Virus record (IMG/VR): IMGVR_UViG_3300037295_000263
Coordinates: 96,001-160,000 of that record
Length of the DNA stretch: 64,000 nucleotides
Strand: one strand, 5' to 3'
Origin: a virus
Lineage: Duplodnaviria; Caudoviricetes
The stretch's first letter is position 1, and each line of letters starts with the position of its first letter. The notes below the pieces were generated by a model that was not told the DNA's origin, did no database searches, and saw only the letters and a program-made list of their open reading frames with translations. The translations under genes were made by a program, and so were the position numbers. Shown here one piece after another: positions 38,451-48,135 of this stretch.

Positions 38451-39455
38451 TTACGCTAGAAGGGCGTGAGCAGCAATGTTCTTTCCTTTGCTCTCCGCCA
38501 TTATATCAAAGTAGTCTCGAAAACTTAGTGCCCATTCATTAACTGCTGTATTCCAGTAGAATTCCGAATGTGCTCTGAGCTTTTGCTTTTTGTAACCAGC
38601 AGCTAATAGCGCAGGCATATCCGGTAATGTGTTAGGGCAGTGATCTACCAATACATTTTCTCTGCTAACACTATAATGCATAACAGGACGAACACCGCGC
38701 CAGGAATCCCGTACACGCTTAACGCTATCCGAATTTGGGTCAATATATTCGCCTTCTCTGCACCAGTTGTGGTGAACATCAAGAACAATAGGCACAATAT
38801 CACTAATACTGAGACAATCATCTAATCCCCATGAGTTTTCTTCGTTTTCGATTGTGATACAGTTTCTCGCTTCATTAGAAAGTCTAGGATACGCTGCTCT
38901 AATACCATCTGGGCCGAGTCGGCCGCTAATGTGTACATTGATTTTAAAGTCTTGAAAAGTTCGTCCATATCCCATCCACCTTGCCATATCAGCATGATAC
39001 TCAAATTCTTCTATACTCCTATTTACAATATCAGGAGTTTCGCTTGCCAAAACAGTAAACTGGCCAGGGTGGAAAGAAAGACGTACATTAAGCAGTCTTG
39101 CACTAGCACCCACTTGCTCAAAATGCCTAGACGCATATTCTTGTACGTCATTACGACGCCAGAAATAGCTAAAATCAGGCTGAGTATATACAGGCAAAAT
39201 ATCACTGCCAAGCCGAACCATTCTAAATTCATCAGGTAATTCTCCCACGCGGTTTACCAGCAGTCTAATACTTTCTATGTTTTGAACCATTAAATCCCAC
39301 AGCTTTTGTTCAGCTTCGTCGCGAGGTTGCCGCTTGAGCCAAGCTACTGTAGTACCACCCGTATTATATTTCTTACAGTCGTCTGTAGGTTTGATACCGT
39401 TAATTTGATCTACAGTATCAATCCACTTACAGGCAAATCCAATTTTGTTAGTCAT
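38451..39455 (-). CDS. uvsE: UV damage endonuclease (UvsE/UvdE)
   Basis: KIGFAC, RLSFHPGQF, NVHISG, TIENEE, LDVHH and HYS motifs. Confidence 0.93.
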   Translation of the reverse strand: MTNKIGFACKWIDTVDQINGIKPTDDCKKYNTGGTTVAWLKRQPRDEAEQKLWDLMVQNIESIRLLVNRVGELPDEFRMVRLGSDILPVYTQPDFSYFWRRNDVQEYASRHFEQVGASARLLNVRLSFHPGQFTVLASETPDIVNRSIEEFEYHADMARWMGYGRTFQDFKINVHISGRLGPDGIRAAYPRLSNEARNCITIENEENSWGLDDCLSISDIVPIVLDVHHNWCREGEYIDPNSDSVKRVRDSWRGVRPVMHYSVSRENVLVDHCPNTLPDMPALLAAGYKKQKLRAHSEFYWNTAVNEWALSFRDYFDIMAESKGKNIAAHALLA

Positions 39456-39726: not shown

Positions 39727-40164
39727 ATGCAATTTAAAGAAACACAAACTCGCACAATAGCTAAAGTTATTTCGTGGAGAGTTTTTATTACCTTAAGTCA
39801 TTTTATAAATGCATTGATAGTAACAGGAAGTATTGCAGTTGGTTTACAGATTGCAGGTTTAGCAACTGTTATCAACAGCGTATTATTCTGGACACATGAA
39901 AGGGTATGGAATTATTTTCAATGGAATAGGAAAAAAGATACACTTTTGAAATTTAACGAAGGGTACCCTAGATCGGTAAGCAAGATTGTTTCTTGGAGAA
40001 TATTGATTACATTTAGTAATTTTTTAATTCCTTTTATTATTACAGGCAGCTGGGGATCAGCAGTAATGTTTGCCGGGATGGCTACTGCGGTTAATATAAT
40101 AATTTACTGGAGTCATGAAAGATTGTGGAACTGGTTTAAGTGGGGCAAAGTTGTTTTAAAATGA
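39727..40164 (+). CDS. Membrane protein with two DUF2061-like repeats
   Basis: RTIAKVISWR...HERVW and RSVSKIVSWR...HERLW. Confidence 0.8.
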   Translation: MQFKETQTRTIAKVISWRVFITLSHFINALIVTGSIAVGLQIAGLATVINSVLFWTHERVWNYFQWNRKKDTLLKFNEGYPRSVSKIVSWRILITFSNFLIPFIITGSWGSAVMFAGMATAVNIIIYWSHERLWNWFKWGKVVLK

Positions 40165-41324
40165 CACCCATTAATAAAAAATTAGGATATTACACAGTAG
40201 ATAGTTTAGAGTTCGATTCTAAGATTCGAGCATGTTTGTATGCATCCTGTGAAAATAAAGAAGTACAATGGCATTTTAATAATAAATGTTTTGAAAATTA
40301 CGATTGGAGTGTAGAACCTGATTACACGCTTGACCAATTGTACGATAAAAGGACTAGAGAATTAAGAGAACAATACGACTATATTATAATTAGTTATAGC
40401 GGCGGCGCCGACAGTCACAACATTGTTGCAAGTTTTATTCGGCAAAACTTGCACATTGATGAAATTATTGTAAACACGATGAAACAGCTTACTGATAAGT
40501 CTACTATTCTAGATTGTAATGTAAAAAATGCTGAAAATGCTGCTGCGGAATATGACCTTCAAACAGTACCAAGATTAAAAGAAATTAGTGCCCAGTGTCC
40601 TAAAACTAAAATCAGTGTGTTAGACATGTCCGACTATCTGTTAAAGTCTTGGTTAGAGATTGGAAATGCTAGTTGGATAATGGACAAACGCGAAGGCCTT
40701 AATCCTCTCAATGTAACTAGATTTAATTATATACACTTTAACAAGGTTCGAAAACAATTCGACAAGAGTAAATCGATTGCACTGATATTAGGCGTCGAAA
40801 AACCTAGAACTACTATCGGGCCTGACAATAAATTCTTTATTTCATTTTCTGACAGAGCAACAAATATAGTAACAATTGCAGAGCATGTAAAAGAATATAC
40901 AAATTCTACAGTAGAATATTTTTATTGGAGTCCGCAAGGCGCCGATATCGTATGCAAACAATCCCATGTTATTAAACAATGGCTAGAACAAGATACCAGT
41001 AGATGGCCACTATGGGACAGGAATTGTAACAACAATGTATATAGATTGTACCATGAAAGAATTTTACGACCATTAATTTATACTACTTGGAAAGACGAGT
41101 GGTATCAAGCCGACAAGGCTACAAAAGATTGGTATAGTGAATTTGACTCTTGGTTTATTAACGGACACAATGGCACTACGCAGCATAGAATATGGCTAGA
41201 CGGTATCGTATATATGCAAAAACATGCTAAAAAGTTTGTAAGCAATCATAATGGAATTAATGATGGACTACTAGTATTTGCCCATCATTATTTTGTAGAT
41301 TATATGAAAGACTATGCACGCTAA
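40161..41324 (+). CDS. PP-loop (adenine nucleotide alpha hydrolase) enzyme
   Basis: ISYSGGADSHN PP-loop; start reassigned to 40161. Confidence 0.7.
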   Translation: MTPINKKLGYYTVDSLEFDSKIRACLYASCENKEVQWHFNNKCFENYDWSVEPDYTLDQLYDKRTRELREQYDYIIISYSGGADSHNIVASFIRQNLHIDEIIVNTMKQLTDKSTILDCNVKNAENAAAEYDLQTVPRLKEISAQCPKTKISVLDMSDYLLKSWLEIGNASWIMDKREGLNPLNVTRFNYIHFNKVRKQFDKSKSIALILGVEKPRTTIGPDNKFFISFSDRATNIVTIAEHVKEYTNSTVEYFYWSPQGADIVCKQSHVIKQWLEQDTSRWPLWDRNCNNNVYRLYHERILRPLIYTTWKDEWYQADKATKDWYSEFDSWFINGHNGTTQHRIWLDGIVYMQKHAKKFVSNHNGINDGLLVFAHHYFVDYMKDYAR

Positions 41325-42234
41325 CAACTTAGATATTGGAATTAATTTTGGTTTCGAAGATAATAAGTTCTATGTAGAATACAGGTCCTGTGGGTATACG
41401 GTCGGAAATCTTCGACAAGAATTTGATAAAAGAGCAAGGCAATTGTACAAAATTAGTGATAAATTAATGTTAGGCATTAGTTCGGGCATGGATAGTCAAG
41501 CAGTTATGCATAGTTTTTGTAGTCAAGACTTGCATATTAAATATGCATTTTTATATATGCCAGGTTACAACGAAATAGAATTTCAGCAATTACAAATACT
41601 AATTAAAAAATATTCTATAGACCCATTCATTATAGAATTAGATCCTGCAGCACTTAAAGACGAATTAATAAACGAATTCAATTTAACTGGGATCGCTCCT
41701 AATCAACAATTGCATCGAAAATTTCTAAGTATGTTGCCTTCGGAAAATGATTTTATTCAGGGAATTCACGGCCCTGATTTCTTTTTTAAAGACAATACAG
41801 TATTCATCGTGGAGACAGCCAATTCTTTAGAGCTATCGAGGTTACTGGCATTTCAAACTCTTAATCGAAAAGGATCAATTATAGGGTGGGAAAGAACTAG
41901 CGAAATCTTAACTAGTTTGTTAACCGATGATGTTGTTACTTCTTTCATATATTCGTATAATTACATATCAAAAAATAGATTAGTATATGACGATGGCCAG
42001 CAAATTCCACTTATTGATTATTGGGATTTGTATATTAAACCCTATGTCTATGGAAAATATTGGAAAGATGAATTGGAATATTTTCCAAAATATCAAGGAT
42101 GTGAAGAAATAGATTGGATAATGAACAGTAGATGGCACGACTTTGGAAAGAATCGAGTAGCAATATCTTACGACCTTTTAATCCAACATCTTACTTCAAC
42201 AGTAAACGGTAGTAAAAAATTTTACGAATCGTGA
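41314..42234 (+). CDS. Divergent PP-loop protein
   Basis: LGISSGMDSQ after RQEFDKRARQL, paralleling the upstream gene. Confidence 0.6.
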   Translation: MHANNLDIGINFGFEDNKFYVEYRSCGYTVGNLRQEFDKRARQLYKISDKLMLGISSGMDSQAVMHSFCSQDLHIKYAFLYMPGYNEIEFQQLQILIKKYSIDPFIIELDPAALKDELINEFNLTGIAPNQQLHRKFLSMLPSENDFIQGIHGPDFFFKDNTVFIVETANSLELSRLLAFQTLNRKGSIIGWERTSEILTSLLTDDVVTSFIYSYNYISKNRLVYDDGQQIPLIDYWDLYIKPYVYGKYWKDELEYFPKYQGCEEIDWIMNSRWHDFGKNRVAISYDLLIQHLTSTVNGSKKFYES

Positions 42235-42683
42235 TGTTTAAAGGTATTAAACAATTTATCCCAAATAGGAAAAAACAATCCGTAATTTTTTTCCGGATTA
42301 CTATGGTGAACCAAGTGGGATTTGCCACTAGTTAATACAGGATATAAATCAAACGTTATATCGTGTTCTATTCTTTCTTGAATTATTGCGGCCCAGCAAT
42401 AATAAAATATCGAAATCCACCATTGCCCAGTTAGTATCGAGAATACCAACGTAGGAATTACTTCAGTCAACCATAAATCAATAGTGCTGTTCATTGTATC
42501 ATTAAACAGAAACAAATTATTCCAGTGCCATGTACTTTGATTCTTTTTAGTTTTTAATGAAACAGAGATGAATTTATGGTGATCTCTATGATAGTTTAGT
42601 AAAAATTTATTTGCATGAGCAGCTCTATGAATCCAATATAAAATAAAAGTCCATAATACAAAATAAAAAATATACTCAATCAT
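42222..42683 (-). CDS. Fatty acid hydroxylase / sterol desaturase-like membrane enzyme
   Basis: YWIHRAAH, YHRDHH, RIEHD and HLVHH His boxes; NYGLFFPIWDKLF. Confidence 0.8.
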   Translation of the reverse strand: MIEYIFYFVLWTFILYWIHRAAHANKFLLNYHRDHHKFISVSLKTKKNQSTWHWNNLFLFNDTMNSTIDLWLTEVIPTLVFSILTGQWWISIFYYCWAAIIQERIEHDITFDLYPVLTSGKSHLVHHSNPEKNYGLFFPIWDKLFNTFKHHDS

Positions 42684-43187
42684 TTAACTGAATAAATCCT
42701 CGTTCCATTCTCTATGTCCTTCTCGGAAAGCCATGTTACTTTGTGTTTCGCGAACTTCCACACGATAACACCATAAGCGTTCTGCTTCAGAAGGACCCCA
42801 CATATCTGGAATATAAACACCATTTACATATTTGTACAGCATATCGGCTAATCCTTCGCACCCTAATTTTGGAAGAATTGTTAGTTTAGCTAATTTCTTT
42901 TCTTGTAATAACTTGTAGGTATCTAATTCTGGATCGTCTTCTGCTACTAACAATGTGTGATCGAATTGGTTCTCTAAGATTCCTTTGAGTTCTTTAAGAC
43001 CTCCGTAGTCAGCTGCCCAGTTTCTAACATCCAGACTGTCTGTTCCAAAATAAAACTTCATGCTAAAACTGTAGCCGTGAATCAAATTACAATGGCTGTC
43101 GGCTCTCCACTGTCTATATGCAACAGGAAATGCATCGTGATATTCTTTAGTGCTGGTATATTTGTATTGTCTTGATTGATTTGCCAT
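42684..43187 (-). CDS. queD: 6-carboxy-5,6,7,8-tetrahydropterin synthase QueD / PTPS
   Basis: HCNLIHGY, DYGGLK, FDHTLL and VRET; start 43187 after AAGGAGA. Confidence 0.85.
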   Translation of the reverse strand: MANQSRQYKYTSTKEYHDAFPVAYRQWRADSHCNLIHGYSFSMKFYFGTDSLDVRNWAADYGGLKELKGILENQFDHTLLVAEDDPELDTYKLLQEKKLAKLTILPKLGCEGLADMLYKYVNGVYIPDMWGPSEAERLWCYRVEVRETQSNMAFREGHREWNEDLFS

Positions 43188-43194
43188 CTCTAGT

Positions 43195-43261
43195 CTCCTT
43201 AATGGTAGCAAGTTTGACGGCTGCAGAGTATTTAAAGTGGGTTGAAGCCATAAAGTCCACT
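43195..43261 (-). ncRNA. Candidate cis-regulatory pseudoknot (preQ1-I-like) in the queD leader
   Basis: P1 AGTGG/CCACT; loop ATGGCT pairs with downstream AGCCGT; loop ends AAC; tail TTAAATA; SD follows. Confidence 0.4.
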
Positions 43262-43280
43262 GGTTGTATTTAACAATAAT

Positions 43281-46609: not shown

Positions 46610-47281
46610 TTACTTTCGATTTCCAAACAACTGTAGTAGCTGTAAAAACAAATTGATAAAGTCCAGGTACAATGTCAATGCGCCCATAATCTCTGCTTTG
46701 CTTGTATCGCCACCATACGACACTGCTTCGCGAATCTTCTGAGTGTCATACGCAGTCAATCCTAGAAACACGATAATAGCAATAGCCGAGATGGTCATTT
46801 GCAGCGCAGTTGATCCAATAAACAGATTTATCACACTGGCAATAATCACAGCAATAAGCCCCACAAACATATATTGACCAAGACTGGTTAAATCTTTTTT
46901 GGTAAAGTAACCATAAAAACTTAGTACTCCAAATAGCACAGCCGCTCCCATAAACGCAGTAAAGATACTGCCCATAGTATAAACAGCAAAGATCATGGAA
47001 AAACTCAATCCCATTAATGCCGCAAAGCCGTATAGGAATAGTTGTAATCCGGTTTTAGTAAAGTGTTCCATGGCAAAGCTCATTACTAGTATAGCAGCCA
47101 ACGGAGAAAGAATCACGATCCATTTTAATATGCCAGTAAAAAAGAACTGTAGTAATTCTGGACTTGATCCTACAAAATAGCTAACCACCATACTGATTAA
47201 TACTGCTATGCCCATATGGCCATAAACTCGACCCATTGCTTCGTTTAGTTCCGAAGCTGAACGATAAGAAGTTGCGTACAT
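46610..47281 (-). CDS. BAX inhibitor-1/YccA-family membrane protein
   Basis: Seven TM segments; TKKDLT, TAYDTQKI and ALTLYLDFINLF. Confidence 0.93.
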   Translation of the reverse strand: MYATSYRSASELNEAMGRVYGHMGIAVLISMVVSYFVGSSPELLQFFFTGILKWIVILSPLAAILVMSFAMEHFTKTGLQLFLYGFAALMGLSFSMIFAVYTMGSIFTAFMGAAVLFGVLSFYGYFTKKDLTSLGQYMFVGLIAVIIASVINLFIGSTALQMTISAIAIIVFLGLTAYDTQKIREAVSYGGDTSKAEIMGALTLYLDFINLFLQLLQLFGNRK

Positions 47282-47292
47282 TATAATCCTTG

Positions 47293-48135
47293 TTAAACAG
47301 CCATATCGGCCTTGATTGGTGGGTGCGGAATGTACCCATCTAGTTTAAAGCTATCAACAGTATACTGGTCTATTGGCTTTGTGTCAAACTTTAAAGTAGG
47401 AAGTGGACGAATATCTCTACTTAATTGTTCGCGTACCGCATCAAAGTGGTTGTTGTAGATATGACAATCACCACCTGTCCAAATAAAGTCGCCTACTTCG
47501 AGTCCACACTCCCTAGCAATGATATGAGTAAGTAAGCTATAGCTGGCAATGTTAAAAGGTACACCTAAAAACATATCACAACTACGTTGATACATTTGAC
47601 AACTAAGTTCACCGTCTGTAACATCAAATTGGCTCAGTATGTGGCACGGAGGTAATACCATGTAGTTTAGCTCAGCAGGATTCCACGCTGACACAATATG
47701 ACGCCTACTGCTAGGATCTTTCTTGATACCGTCAATTAAATTTTTAATTTGATCAACGGAAACTCCGCCTCTTGGAGATTCCCATCTACGCCATTGTACT
47801 CCGTATACTCGTCCTAGGTCACCCGGAAACAGAGCTTTTTGTTTCCAGTAATCGGCTTGAGCATTTGCTGTCCAAATAGTTTTCTTGTCCGATTCGTCCG
47901 AACCATGCAATATCTTGGCCAGTCTGCGCTCATTACCACTTCCTTCCAAAAACCAAAGTAGCTCACTTACTACAGCACGCCATGCCAATTGCTTTGTAGT
48001 AACTGCCGGAAACGAATGACGCAAGTCAAATCTCATTTGGTATCCAAATACTGACCTAGTACCTACTCCAGTACGATCTGTCTTGTCACGTCCATGGGCC
48101 ATGACATGTTCTAATGCTTGACTATATTCTTTCAT
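47293..48135 (-). CDS. thyA: Thymidylate synthase
   Basis: DRTGVGT, LPPCH, YQRSCDMFLGVPFNIASY and HIYNNH. Confidence 0.98.
   Translation of the reverse strand: MKEYSQALEHVMAHGRDKTDRTGVGTRSVFGYQMRFDLRHSFPAVTTKQLAWRAVVSELLWFLEGSGNERRLAKILHGSDESDKKTIWTANAQADYWKQKALFPGDLGRVYGVQWRRWESPRGGVSVDQIKNLIDGIKKDPSSRRHIVSAWNPAELNYMVLPPCHILSQFDVTDGELSCQMYQRSCDMFLGVPFNIASYSLLTHIIARECGLEVGDFIWTGGDCHIYNNHFDAVREQLSRDIRPLPTLKFDTKPIDQYTVDSFKLDGYIPHPPIKADMAV

Follow-up and report, generated by a model that had tools for sequence, protein, structure and literature searches.

The window considered here is a 64,000-nucleotide (nt) stretch (positions 96,001 to 160,000) of IMGVR_UViG_3300037295_000263, a 216.7-kb IMG/VR virus record (Caudoviricetes; CheckV: 59% complete), and positions are those of this 64-kb window. 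On its minus strand, the leader of a gene for a QueD-like enzyme of the 6-carboxytetrahydropterin/PTPS family contains a compact H-type pseudoknot of ~45 nt. The structure is conserved, with compensating base changes, in more than 100 related uncultured phages and matches no catalogued RNA family, which makes it a strong candidate for a new kind of riboswitch-like regulation of the synthesis of DNA-modification precursors. The element is very probably a selected and functional cis-acting RNA structure; that it is a metabolite-sensing, ON-type translational riboswitch of a new class is somewhat favoured over the other readings taken together. A narrower form of this proposal is more tentative: the class would be found only in T4-like phages of one large, aquatic and uncultured clade, in which a guanine-faced metabolite on the way from GTP to 7-deazaguanine (for example, the FolE product, CPH4, CDG, preQ0 or a guanine nucleotide) would turn queD translation ON.

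The pseudoknot consists of a 5-bp stem (P1) and a second stem (P2) of 4-5 bp, which joins the P1 loop with the 3' tail; the loops are termed L1, L2 and L3, and the parts found in the window are collected in Table 1. The original prediction, made from the letters of the window, had described P1 as AGTGG/CCACT, a loop segment ATGGCT (43251-43246) pairing with AGCCGT (43222-43217), a Shine-Dalgarno (SD) sequence and the ATG; each lies exactly where it was placed, and the H-type pseudoknot proposed for this leader is real and conserved, with covariation in P1 and in the P2 core GGCT/AGCC. The relatives do not conserve the 6-bp version of P2, with its outer A-U and U.G pairs, or the TTT/AAA extension across a bulge. 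The 5' half of the family consensus reads A-G-N-G-G (P1), N-C-U followed by 1-7 nt (L1), G-R-C-N(-N) (P2) and U-C-A-Y-C (L2); the 3' half reads C-C-N-C-U (P1) and N-U-A-N-A-N-A-Y followed by U-C-U-G-C (L3), and then the P2 3' strand, the 5 nt preceding which are invariant (UCUGC). Among the members L1 measures 4-10 nt, and the spacer between the P1 strands has 13-19 nt.

At least 13 unpaired positions in L1, L2 and L3 are invariant or nearly so. In alignment A1, which was made with MAFFT and without selection on L1 positions 2-3, the C at position 2 is invariant and the T at position 3 is at least 90% conserved. The A at the first loop position had been thought to replace a conserved U; across 123 unique aptamer sequences this position is U in 51, C in 44 and A in 28 (41%, 36% and 23%), and because it is unconserved across the family it is not a mutated conserved U. 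L2 reads TCATC in 89 of the same 123 sequences, TCACC in 15 and TCAAC in 6, and its terminal C is invariant both in A1 and in a second alignment, A2. Of the AAC loop end that had been put forward as a preQ1 trait, the invariant final C stands; the AAC as such is specific to the window, the consensus being UCAUC.

Conservation of the element was followed both through the protein and independently of it. A protein-anchored scan of IMG/VR identified at least 591 contigs encoding QueD-like relatives, and the best 80 were retrieved; the element lies no more than 260 nt upstream of the queD-like gene in 74 of these 80, and a covariance model (R1) adds three more, including one copy ~0.9 kb upstream. 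Two of the last three are cut off upstream, and one, L022, is seemingly without the element. L022 (IMGVR_UViG_3300042022_000197) has 90% protein identity, and its upstream gene extends to the queD SD; it offers a natural comparator without the motif. A gene-blind pattern scan, in which the only fixed bases were GG-N-CT, TCA, CCC, one A and TCTGC, returned at least 120 stretches, and ~100 among the matches listed are clearly the motif; the three P1 pairs that lie outside the pattern are all formed in 93 of the 100 listed motif matches, with one pair unpaired in the other 7. Altogether 170 instances were parsed in IMG/VR (123 unique aptamer sequences), ~95 of which stem from the gene-blind scan. 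All 170 precede a QueD-like open reading frame (ORF) on the same strand, nearly always within ~120 nt, and the proteins encoded behind the motif are 30-94% identical to that of the window, the most distant being only 30-40% identical.

Within the window the motif pattern has one match against zero expected. R1 scores this copy at 34.3 bits (E 7e-9), the sole significant match in the 216.7-kb record, where the second-best match reaches 13 bits. The motif appears to be phage-specific. A pattern scan of cellular genomes gave only chance matches in GC-rich coding DNA among the 120 stretches listed. Searches of the cultured phages in INPHARED by BLASTN with the leaders also returned chance matches only, and R1 found no copy in the queD upstream regions (overlapping or short) of the cultured phages ACP17, X1, IME-SM1 and Motura.

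The covariation of P1 and P2 that the original prediction had proposed to look for in related queD leaders is strong in both helices. Because L1 and L2 differ in length, the MAFFT alignment A1 misplaces the register of P2; A2 is a gap-free alignment of 37 equal-length members, used with an anchored script. In A2 the pseudoknotted structure accounts for standard pairs in 93.8% of cells, compared with 73.1% after shuffling (0 of 500 shuffles as high), and the covariation score is 0.574 versus 0.194 for the shuffled controls; double-sided changes are seen in 8 of 10 pairs, and sliding the 3' partner by 1-3 columns lowers pairing to 37-55%. Compensatory changes affect three of the five P1 pairs, and double changes occur in all five P2 columns. 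Among the P1 haplotypes are AGCGG/CCGCT, AGTGG/CCACT, ATCGG/CCGAT, ACCGG/CCGGT, AGAGG/CCTCT and TGCGG/CCGCA; P2 has ~50 haplotypes (e.g. GGCG/CGCC, GGCA/TGCC, GGCTT/AAGCC, GACGC/GTGTC, GACTT/AAGTC, GGCAT/ATGCC and TGGTG/CACC).

Pairing of P2 was not selected for at any stage, and its four inner pairs are nonetheless formed in 87.6% of cases across the 123 unique members; the corresponding figures are 50% for partners exchanged at random between sequences (at most 58.7% in 1000 shuffles) and 21-43% for slid registers. On a FastTree phylogeny of 148 QueD proteins, at least 29 changes map to P1 pair 3 and 27-53 to the P2 pairs; since the pair states change repeatedly on this tree, the covariation represents many independent events rather than one inherited change.

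The P2 3' strand has a second potential partner in the region of the ribosome binding site (RBS). Of 150 unique leaders, 130 have it paired to the SD-to-start region in their pseudoknot-free minimum free energy (MFE) folds, compared with 53% after the P2 3' 7-mer is shuffled; across the leaders, the distance from P2 to the SD downstream is 9-30 nt. Class A leaders (82 unique) read ..NGCC-UAUG..loop..CAUAGGAG, and in these a CCUAUG/CAUAGG hairpin (P3) covers the AGG of the SD, the first two C's of the hairpin being the last two bases of P2. Class B leaders (53 unique, the window included) pair G-Y-C-R-U-Y with R-A-U-G-R-C across the start codon, the 5' strand of this helix sharing 3 nt with the P2 3' strand; RNAalifold on 48 leaders retains all six pairs in 46-48 of the 48, and a C-G to U-A double change is present in 12 sequences together with consistent one-sided changes. 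A third design places AUGUCU/AGACAU at the 3' edge of the SD (e.g. L020 and L175). Every platform design, whether directed at the SD, the start codon or the SD 3' edge, reuses the P2 3' strand, and in classes A and B the overlap between this strand and the RBS-sequestering helix is 2-4 nt. As the P2 3' strand can pair with either partner, formation of the pseudoknot and occlusion of the ribosome site would compete, which suggests an ON-type translational switch. The sequestering hairpin of the window (-11.6 kcal/mol) outweighs the P2 duplex (-4.2 kcal/mol with 4 bp to -6.5 kcal/mol with 6 bp), so that forming the pseudoknot would take additional stabilisation; across the family, the median platform energy shifts from -7.1 to -4.0 kcal/mol when the P2 3' strand is blocked.

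A T4-late-type promoter-like box stands upstream of P1 in the window. Of 151 unique relatives, 107 have the hexamer TAA[AG]TA in the 40 nt preceding P1, usually at a distance of 5-11 nt, against a background of 2% in random 40-mers from the same loci; the variants include ATAAATA, ATAAGTA, GTTAAATA and similar boxes, and in several of the other leaders a TATAAT-like box takes this position. TATAAAT is known as the T4-like late promoter, as used in PMC9004378. No sigma-70 promoter was found on the coding strand of the window leader, and no intrinsic terminator in the leader of the window or of the class A relative L003.

Class A leaders display an internal promoter-like sequence of their own, TTTACA-17 nt-TGnTATAAT (L003:964-992), which is near-consensus for sigma-70, agreeing at 11 of 12 positions and having an extended -10 as well; it runs from L3 through the P2 3' strand into the loop of the hairpin that hides the SD, and is absent from the window. 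A transcript from this promoter would be aptamer-free with an open SD, which hints at an unregulated early mRNA in class A beside the regulated one from the upstream TAAATA box.

The genes around the motif provide a context for a possible ligand. Of the related loci, 49 encode GTP cyclohydrolase I ~1.6 kb upstream; the gene directly upstream is for a phosphoribosyltransferase in 44, a HIT protein in 41 or a cytidylyltransferase-like protein in 23. Downstream are genes for an unannotated protein of 272 aa (71 loci) and for a weakly matching radical-SAM/Fer4_12 protein (61 loci), provisionally taken as QueE-like. The window's own record contains FolE (GTP cyclohydrolase I) at C1:93277-93810, just outside the window, and no Pfam match to QueC or TGT/DpdA in its 216.7 kb (59% complete). 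Together with the genes found directly upstream of the motif in the related loci, this could mean that the deazapurine is handled at the nucleotide level and not by DNA transglycosylation. Because the controlled enzyme consumes the FolE product, a pterin, a 7-deazaguanine intermediate or a guanine nucleotide are the most reasonable classes of ligand; in each of these a guanine-like face may be read by the invariant L2 cytosine.

It is proposed that the first ~45 nt of the queD mRNA would fold into the H-type pseudoknot, which a putative ligand would stabilise; the switch would be specific to the phage 7-deazaguanine pathway. With the pseudoknot formed the RBS would be free (ON state); with P2 open its 3' strand would occlude the RBS, at the start codon in class B and at the SD in class A (OFF state). 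The element has the generic traits of a riboswitch in its conserved structured aptamer, its covariation and its conserved unpaired nt; the promoter boxes point to a position in the 5' untranslated region, and the predicted expression platform is exclusive with the aptamer. The idea of a variant riboswitch thus survives in that the element is riboswitch-like and specific to queD; its membership of preQ1-I does not, and the logic would be opposite (ON) to that of the preQ1 riboswitches because the P2 3' strand is an anti-RBS strand and not part of the SD.

Several points weigh against a metabolite-sensing ON switch. The leader folded alone has an MFE of -16.5 kcal/mol, with z = -0.26 relative to shuffles; this single-sequence fold is unexceptional, and since the leader alone folds no better than shuffles the case for the element rests on the relatives. 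The 100% pairing of P1 is partly circular, as the parser demanded a fully paired P1; in the looser pattern scan all five pairs were still formed in 93 of 100 instances. The transcript of the window would begin at about A43261, where P1 itself begins, a placement that depends on T4 spacing from the box. Blocking the P2 3' strand moves the predicted paired fraction of the RBS window from 0.44 to 0.41; as this fraction hardly shifts, support for the ON direction is only moderate. An ON switch on a biosynthetic gene is also less intuitive than feedback repression, and part of the class A conservation may act at the DNA level, because the near-invariant P3 hairpin overlaps the sigma-70 promoter.

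The best surviving rival, although an unlikely one, is a protein-binding translational operator, bound by QueD itself or by a phage translational regulator. Such operators have precedents in phages and bacteria, among them the pseudoknots of the T4 gene 32 leader and of S15 rpsO, the latter being the subject of PMC3985624; in the gene 32 leader, the pseudoknot nucleates cooperative binding of gp32 along the unstructured leader. This precedent, the conserved pseudoknot with conserved single-stranded bases at the 5' end of a phage mRNA and the T4-like context (late-type promoter boxes) all favour an operator, and the motif resembles the gene 32 leader in being a 5'-end H-type pseudoknot on a T4-type phage mRNA that would control downstream translation. 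Unlike that leader, however, it has a defined competing RBS helix and no known protein partner; the motif is kept while QueD diverges to 30% identity and the neighbouring genes vary, no single co-occurring candidate binding protein was found, and a compact junction that holds an invariant C is seen more typically in pockets for small molecules.

A ligand-independent element is quite improbable; it could be a pseudoknot that folds during transcription and serves as a kinetic timer keeping the RBS open on newly made transcripts, as a 5'-end protection against decay or as an RNA thermometer. The motif lies at the predicted 5' end, its strands are transcribed before the RBS, and the alternative hairpin is favoured (-11.6 versus about -4 to -6.5 kcal/mol); given this thermodynamic preference, the ON state might conceivably decay to OFF with time or temperature. 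The number of invariant or near-invariant unpaired positions exceeds what a stabiliser or thermometer usually needs, however, and the sole association with one enzyme gene points to metabolic sensing.

Little credence is given to a divergent preQ1-I riboswitch, in which preQ1 or preQ0 bound at the P1/P2 junction would repress queD by feedback. In preQ1-I the specificity cytosine that ends L2 is highly conserved, an L1 uridine and an L3 adenine that contact the ligand are conserved, and a poly-A stretch directly precedes P2 (PMC10622847). The phage motif shares with it the topology of an H-type pseudoknot with a P1 of ~5 bp and a short P2 between P1 loop and 3' tail, an L2 of several nucleotides closed by a conserved cytosine (putatively ligand-reading in the phages), adenines in L3, an association solely with a gene of the queuosine/7-deazaguanine pathway, and translational control, which is predicted here. 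Rfam 15 was searched at gathering score with the whole window and 15 relatives, and at E<=10 with 701 nt of the window and with 96-nt slices of the window and of L003. No family matched the window or the 15 relatives at gathering score, and the preQ1-I/II/III search suggested by the original prediction gave no match to preQ1-I (RF00522, types I-III), preQ1-II or preQ1-III at E<=10 on the 701-nt and 96-nt slices; Thr_leader, ssnA, SAM_alpha (9.9 bits) and caiA appeared as chance-level matches only. The phage L1 is longer (4-10 nt) and lacks a conserved ligand-contacting uridine, and the 13-nt L3 ends in invariant UCUGC instead of an A-tract before P2. In preQ1-I the P2 3' strand takes in part of the SD, so that translation is repressed when the ligand binds. 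In the phages the P2 3' strand contains no SD and otherwise masks the SD or AUG, which predicts activation (ON) and not repression; the phage motif is, moreover, found in uncultured phages only.

Other small pseudoknots offer partial likenesses. The motif has in common with SAM-II/SAM-V (RF00521 clan) a classic H-type pseudoknot with a long L3 running along P1, and SAM-II (RF00521) is the only near-match in Rfam, with 9.9 bits (E 3.5), far short of the gathering threshold of 36 bits; however, the conserved triplex nucleotides are not shared, and the context is queD and not methionine/SAM metabolism. Guanidine-III (ykkC-III) is a ~41-nt H-type pseudoknot and a translational ON switch of guanidine exporter and carboxylase genes; the phage motif is similar in its small H-type pseudoknot and its predicted ON logic, and differs in its unrelated sequence, its lack of a match in Rfam and the genes it would regulate. 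A superficial resemblance of P1-UUAAAUA to the pistol ribozyme was rejected, there being no Rfam match and no P2/P3 substrate helix.

A signal acting in DNA, such as a promoter with an operator or an inverted repeat for a dimeric regulator, is hardly tenable: the 11/12 consensus TTTACA-17 nt-TGnTATAAT of class A from L3 to the P3 loop and the A/T-rich L3, late-promoter-box-like in some members, speak for it, but the window and all class B leaders keep the motif without a -10 element, the crossing loop-to-tail covariation of P2 has no explanation in DNA binding, and a fixed dimer site is incompatible with a P1 spacer that varies in length.

Phages use the 7-deazaguanine pathway for DNA modification against restriction (PMC6884629). 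The motif is bound to one enzyme of this pathway and is abundant, with more than 590 related queD-like loci in IMG/VR and at least ~100 gene-blind matches. If it binds a metabolite, it would be a new variant of aptamer fold with a logic opposite to that of the preQ1 classes; it would show which pathway intermediate phages monitor and would provide a compact ON-switch part of ~45 nt. Should that metabolite be guanine-faced, this would be the first riboswitch dedicated to the precursor supply of viral DNA hypermodification; if a protein is bound instead, the motif would be a new translational operator in T4-like phages. No description of it was found in the literature on a queD/PTPS riboswitch, preQ1-IV, a preQ0 riboswitch or phage structured RNAs. 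The published phage riboswitches are few and belong to classes taken over from bacteria, for instance the glutamine riboswitches of marine myophages (PMC9004378).

Table 1. Features of the queD leader and its surroundings in the 64-kb window
Feature	Position	Strand	Remarks
T4-late-type promoter-like box GTTAAATA	43267-43274	-	upstream of P1
P1 5' strand AGTGG	43257-43261	-	partner 43240-43236
L1 ACTTTAT	43250-43256	-	positions 2-3 (CU) conserved, position 1 variable
P2 5' strand GGCT	43246-43249	-	within the P1 loop; partner AGCC 43222-43219
L2 TCAAC	43241-43245	-	family consensus TCATC; final C invariant
P1 3' strand CCACT	43236-43240	-	pairs with AGTGG
L3 TTAAATAC + TCTGC	43223-43235	-	A at 3, 5 and 7 and TCTG(C) invariant or nearly so
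P2 3' strand AGCC	43219-43222	-	pairs with GGCT
Anti-start strand GCCGTC	43216-43221	-	shares 3 nt with P2 3' strand; partner GATGGC; in MFE fold
SD AAGGAGA	43194-43200	-	direct sequence reading
queD start codon ATG	43187-43185	-	direct sequence reading
GATGGC, start-codon side of sequestering helix	43183-43188	-	in MFE fold and RNAalifold
QueD-like 6-carboxytetrahydropterin/PTPS-family gene	42684-43187	-	167 aa; motif Cx3HGY; regulated gene
Intergenic gap		-	93 nt between upstream ORF stop and queD ATG; filled by the pseudoknot element
Upstream ORF	stop 43283-43281	-	387 aa; PHROG 11903 (PHROG function entry: unknown)
FA_hydroxylase-family ORF	42222-42683	-	153 aa; start overlaps queD stop by 4 nt
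Bax inhibitor-1 family protein	46610-47281	-	1.5e-55
ThyA	47293-48135	-	thymidylate synthase
UvdE	38451-39455	-	UV endonuclease

The QueD-like protein of the window matches Pfam PTPS (6e-14) and PHROG 2389 'QueD-like' (5e-36), and NCBIfam QueD weakly. QueD proteins of cultured phages, that of the dPreQ0 phage Iggy included, are 40-54% identical to it, and by similarity those of the cultured dPreQ0 phages fall into the same subfamily. Of 152 unique homologues encoded behind the pseudoknot, 147 have Cx3HGY in place of Cx3HGH, the canonical zinc-binding motif of QueD, and the window protein reads AYRQW where E. coli QueD has AAHRL. The FA_hydroxylase-like ORF is probably in the same transcript as queD and likewise co-translated with it; the usual downstream partner of queD in the relatives is the unannotated 272-aa protein, not this ORF. 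Two convergent ORFs, 41314-42234 (+) and 40140-41324 (+), have no Pfam family, and the former has a weak match to NAD synthase (PP-loop) in NCBIfam (E 0.006); both may be divergent QueC-like adenylating enzymes. The Bax inhibitor-1 family membrane protein, ThyA and UvdE are also encoded near the queD locus, and UvdE is seen again downstream of queD in 26 related loci.

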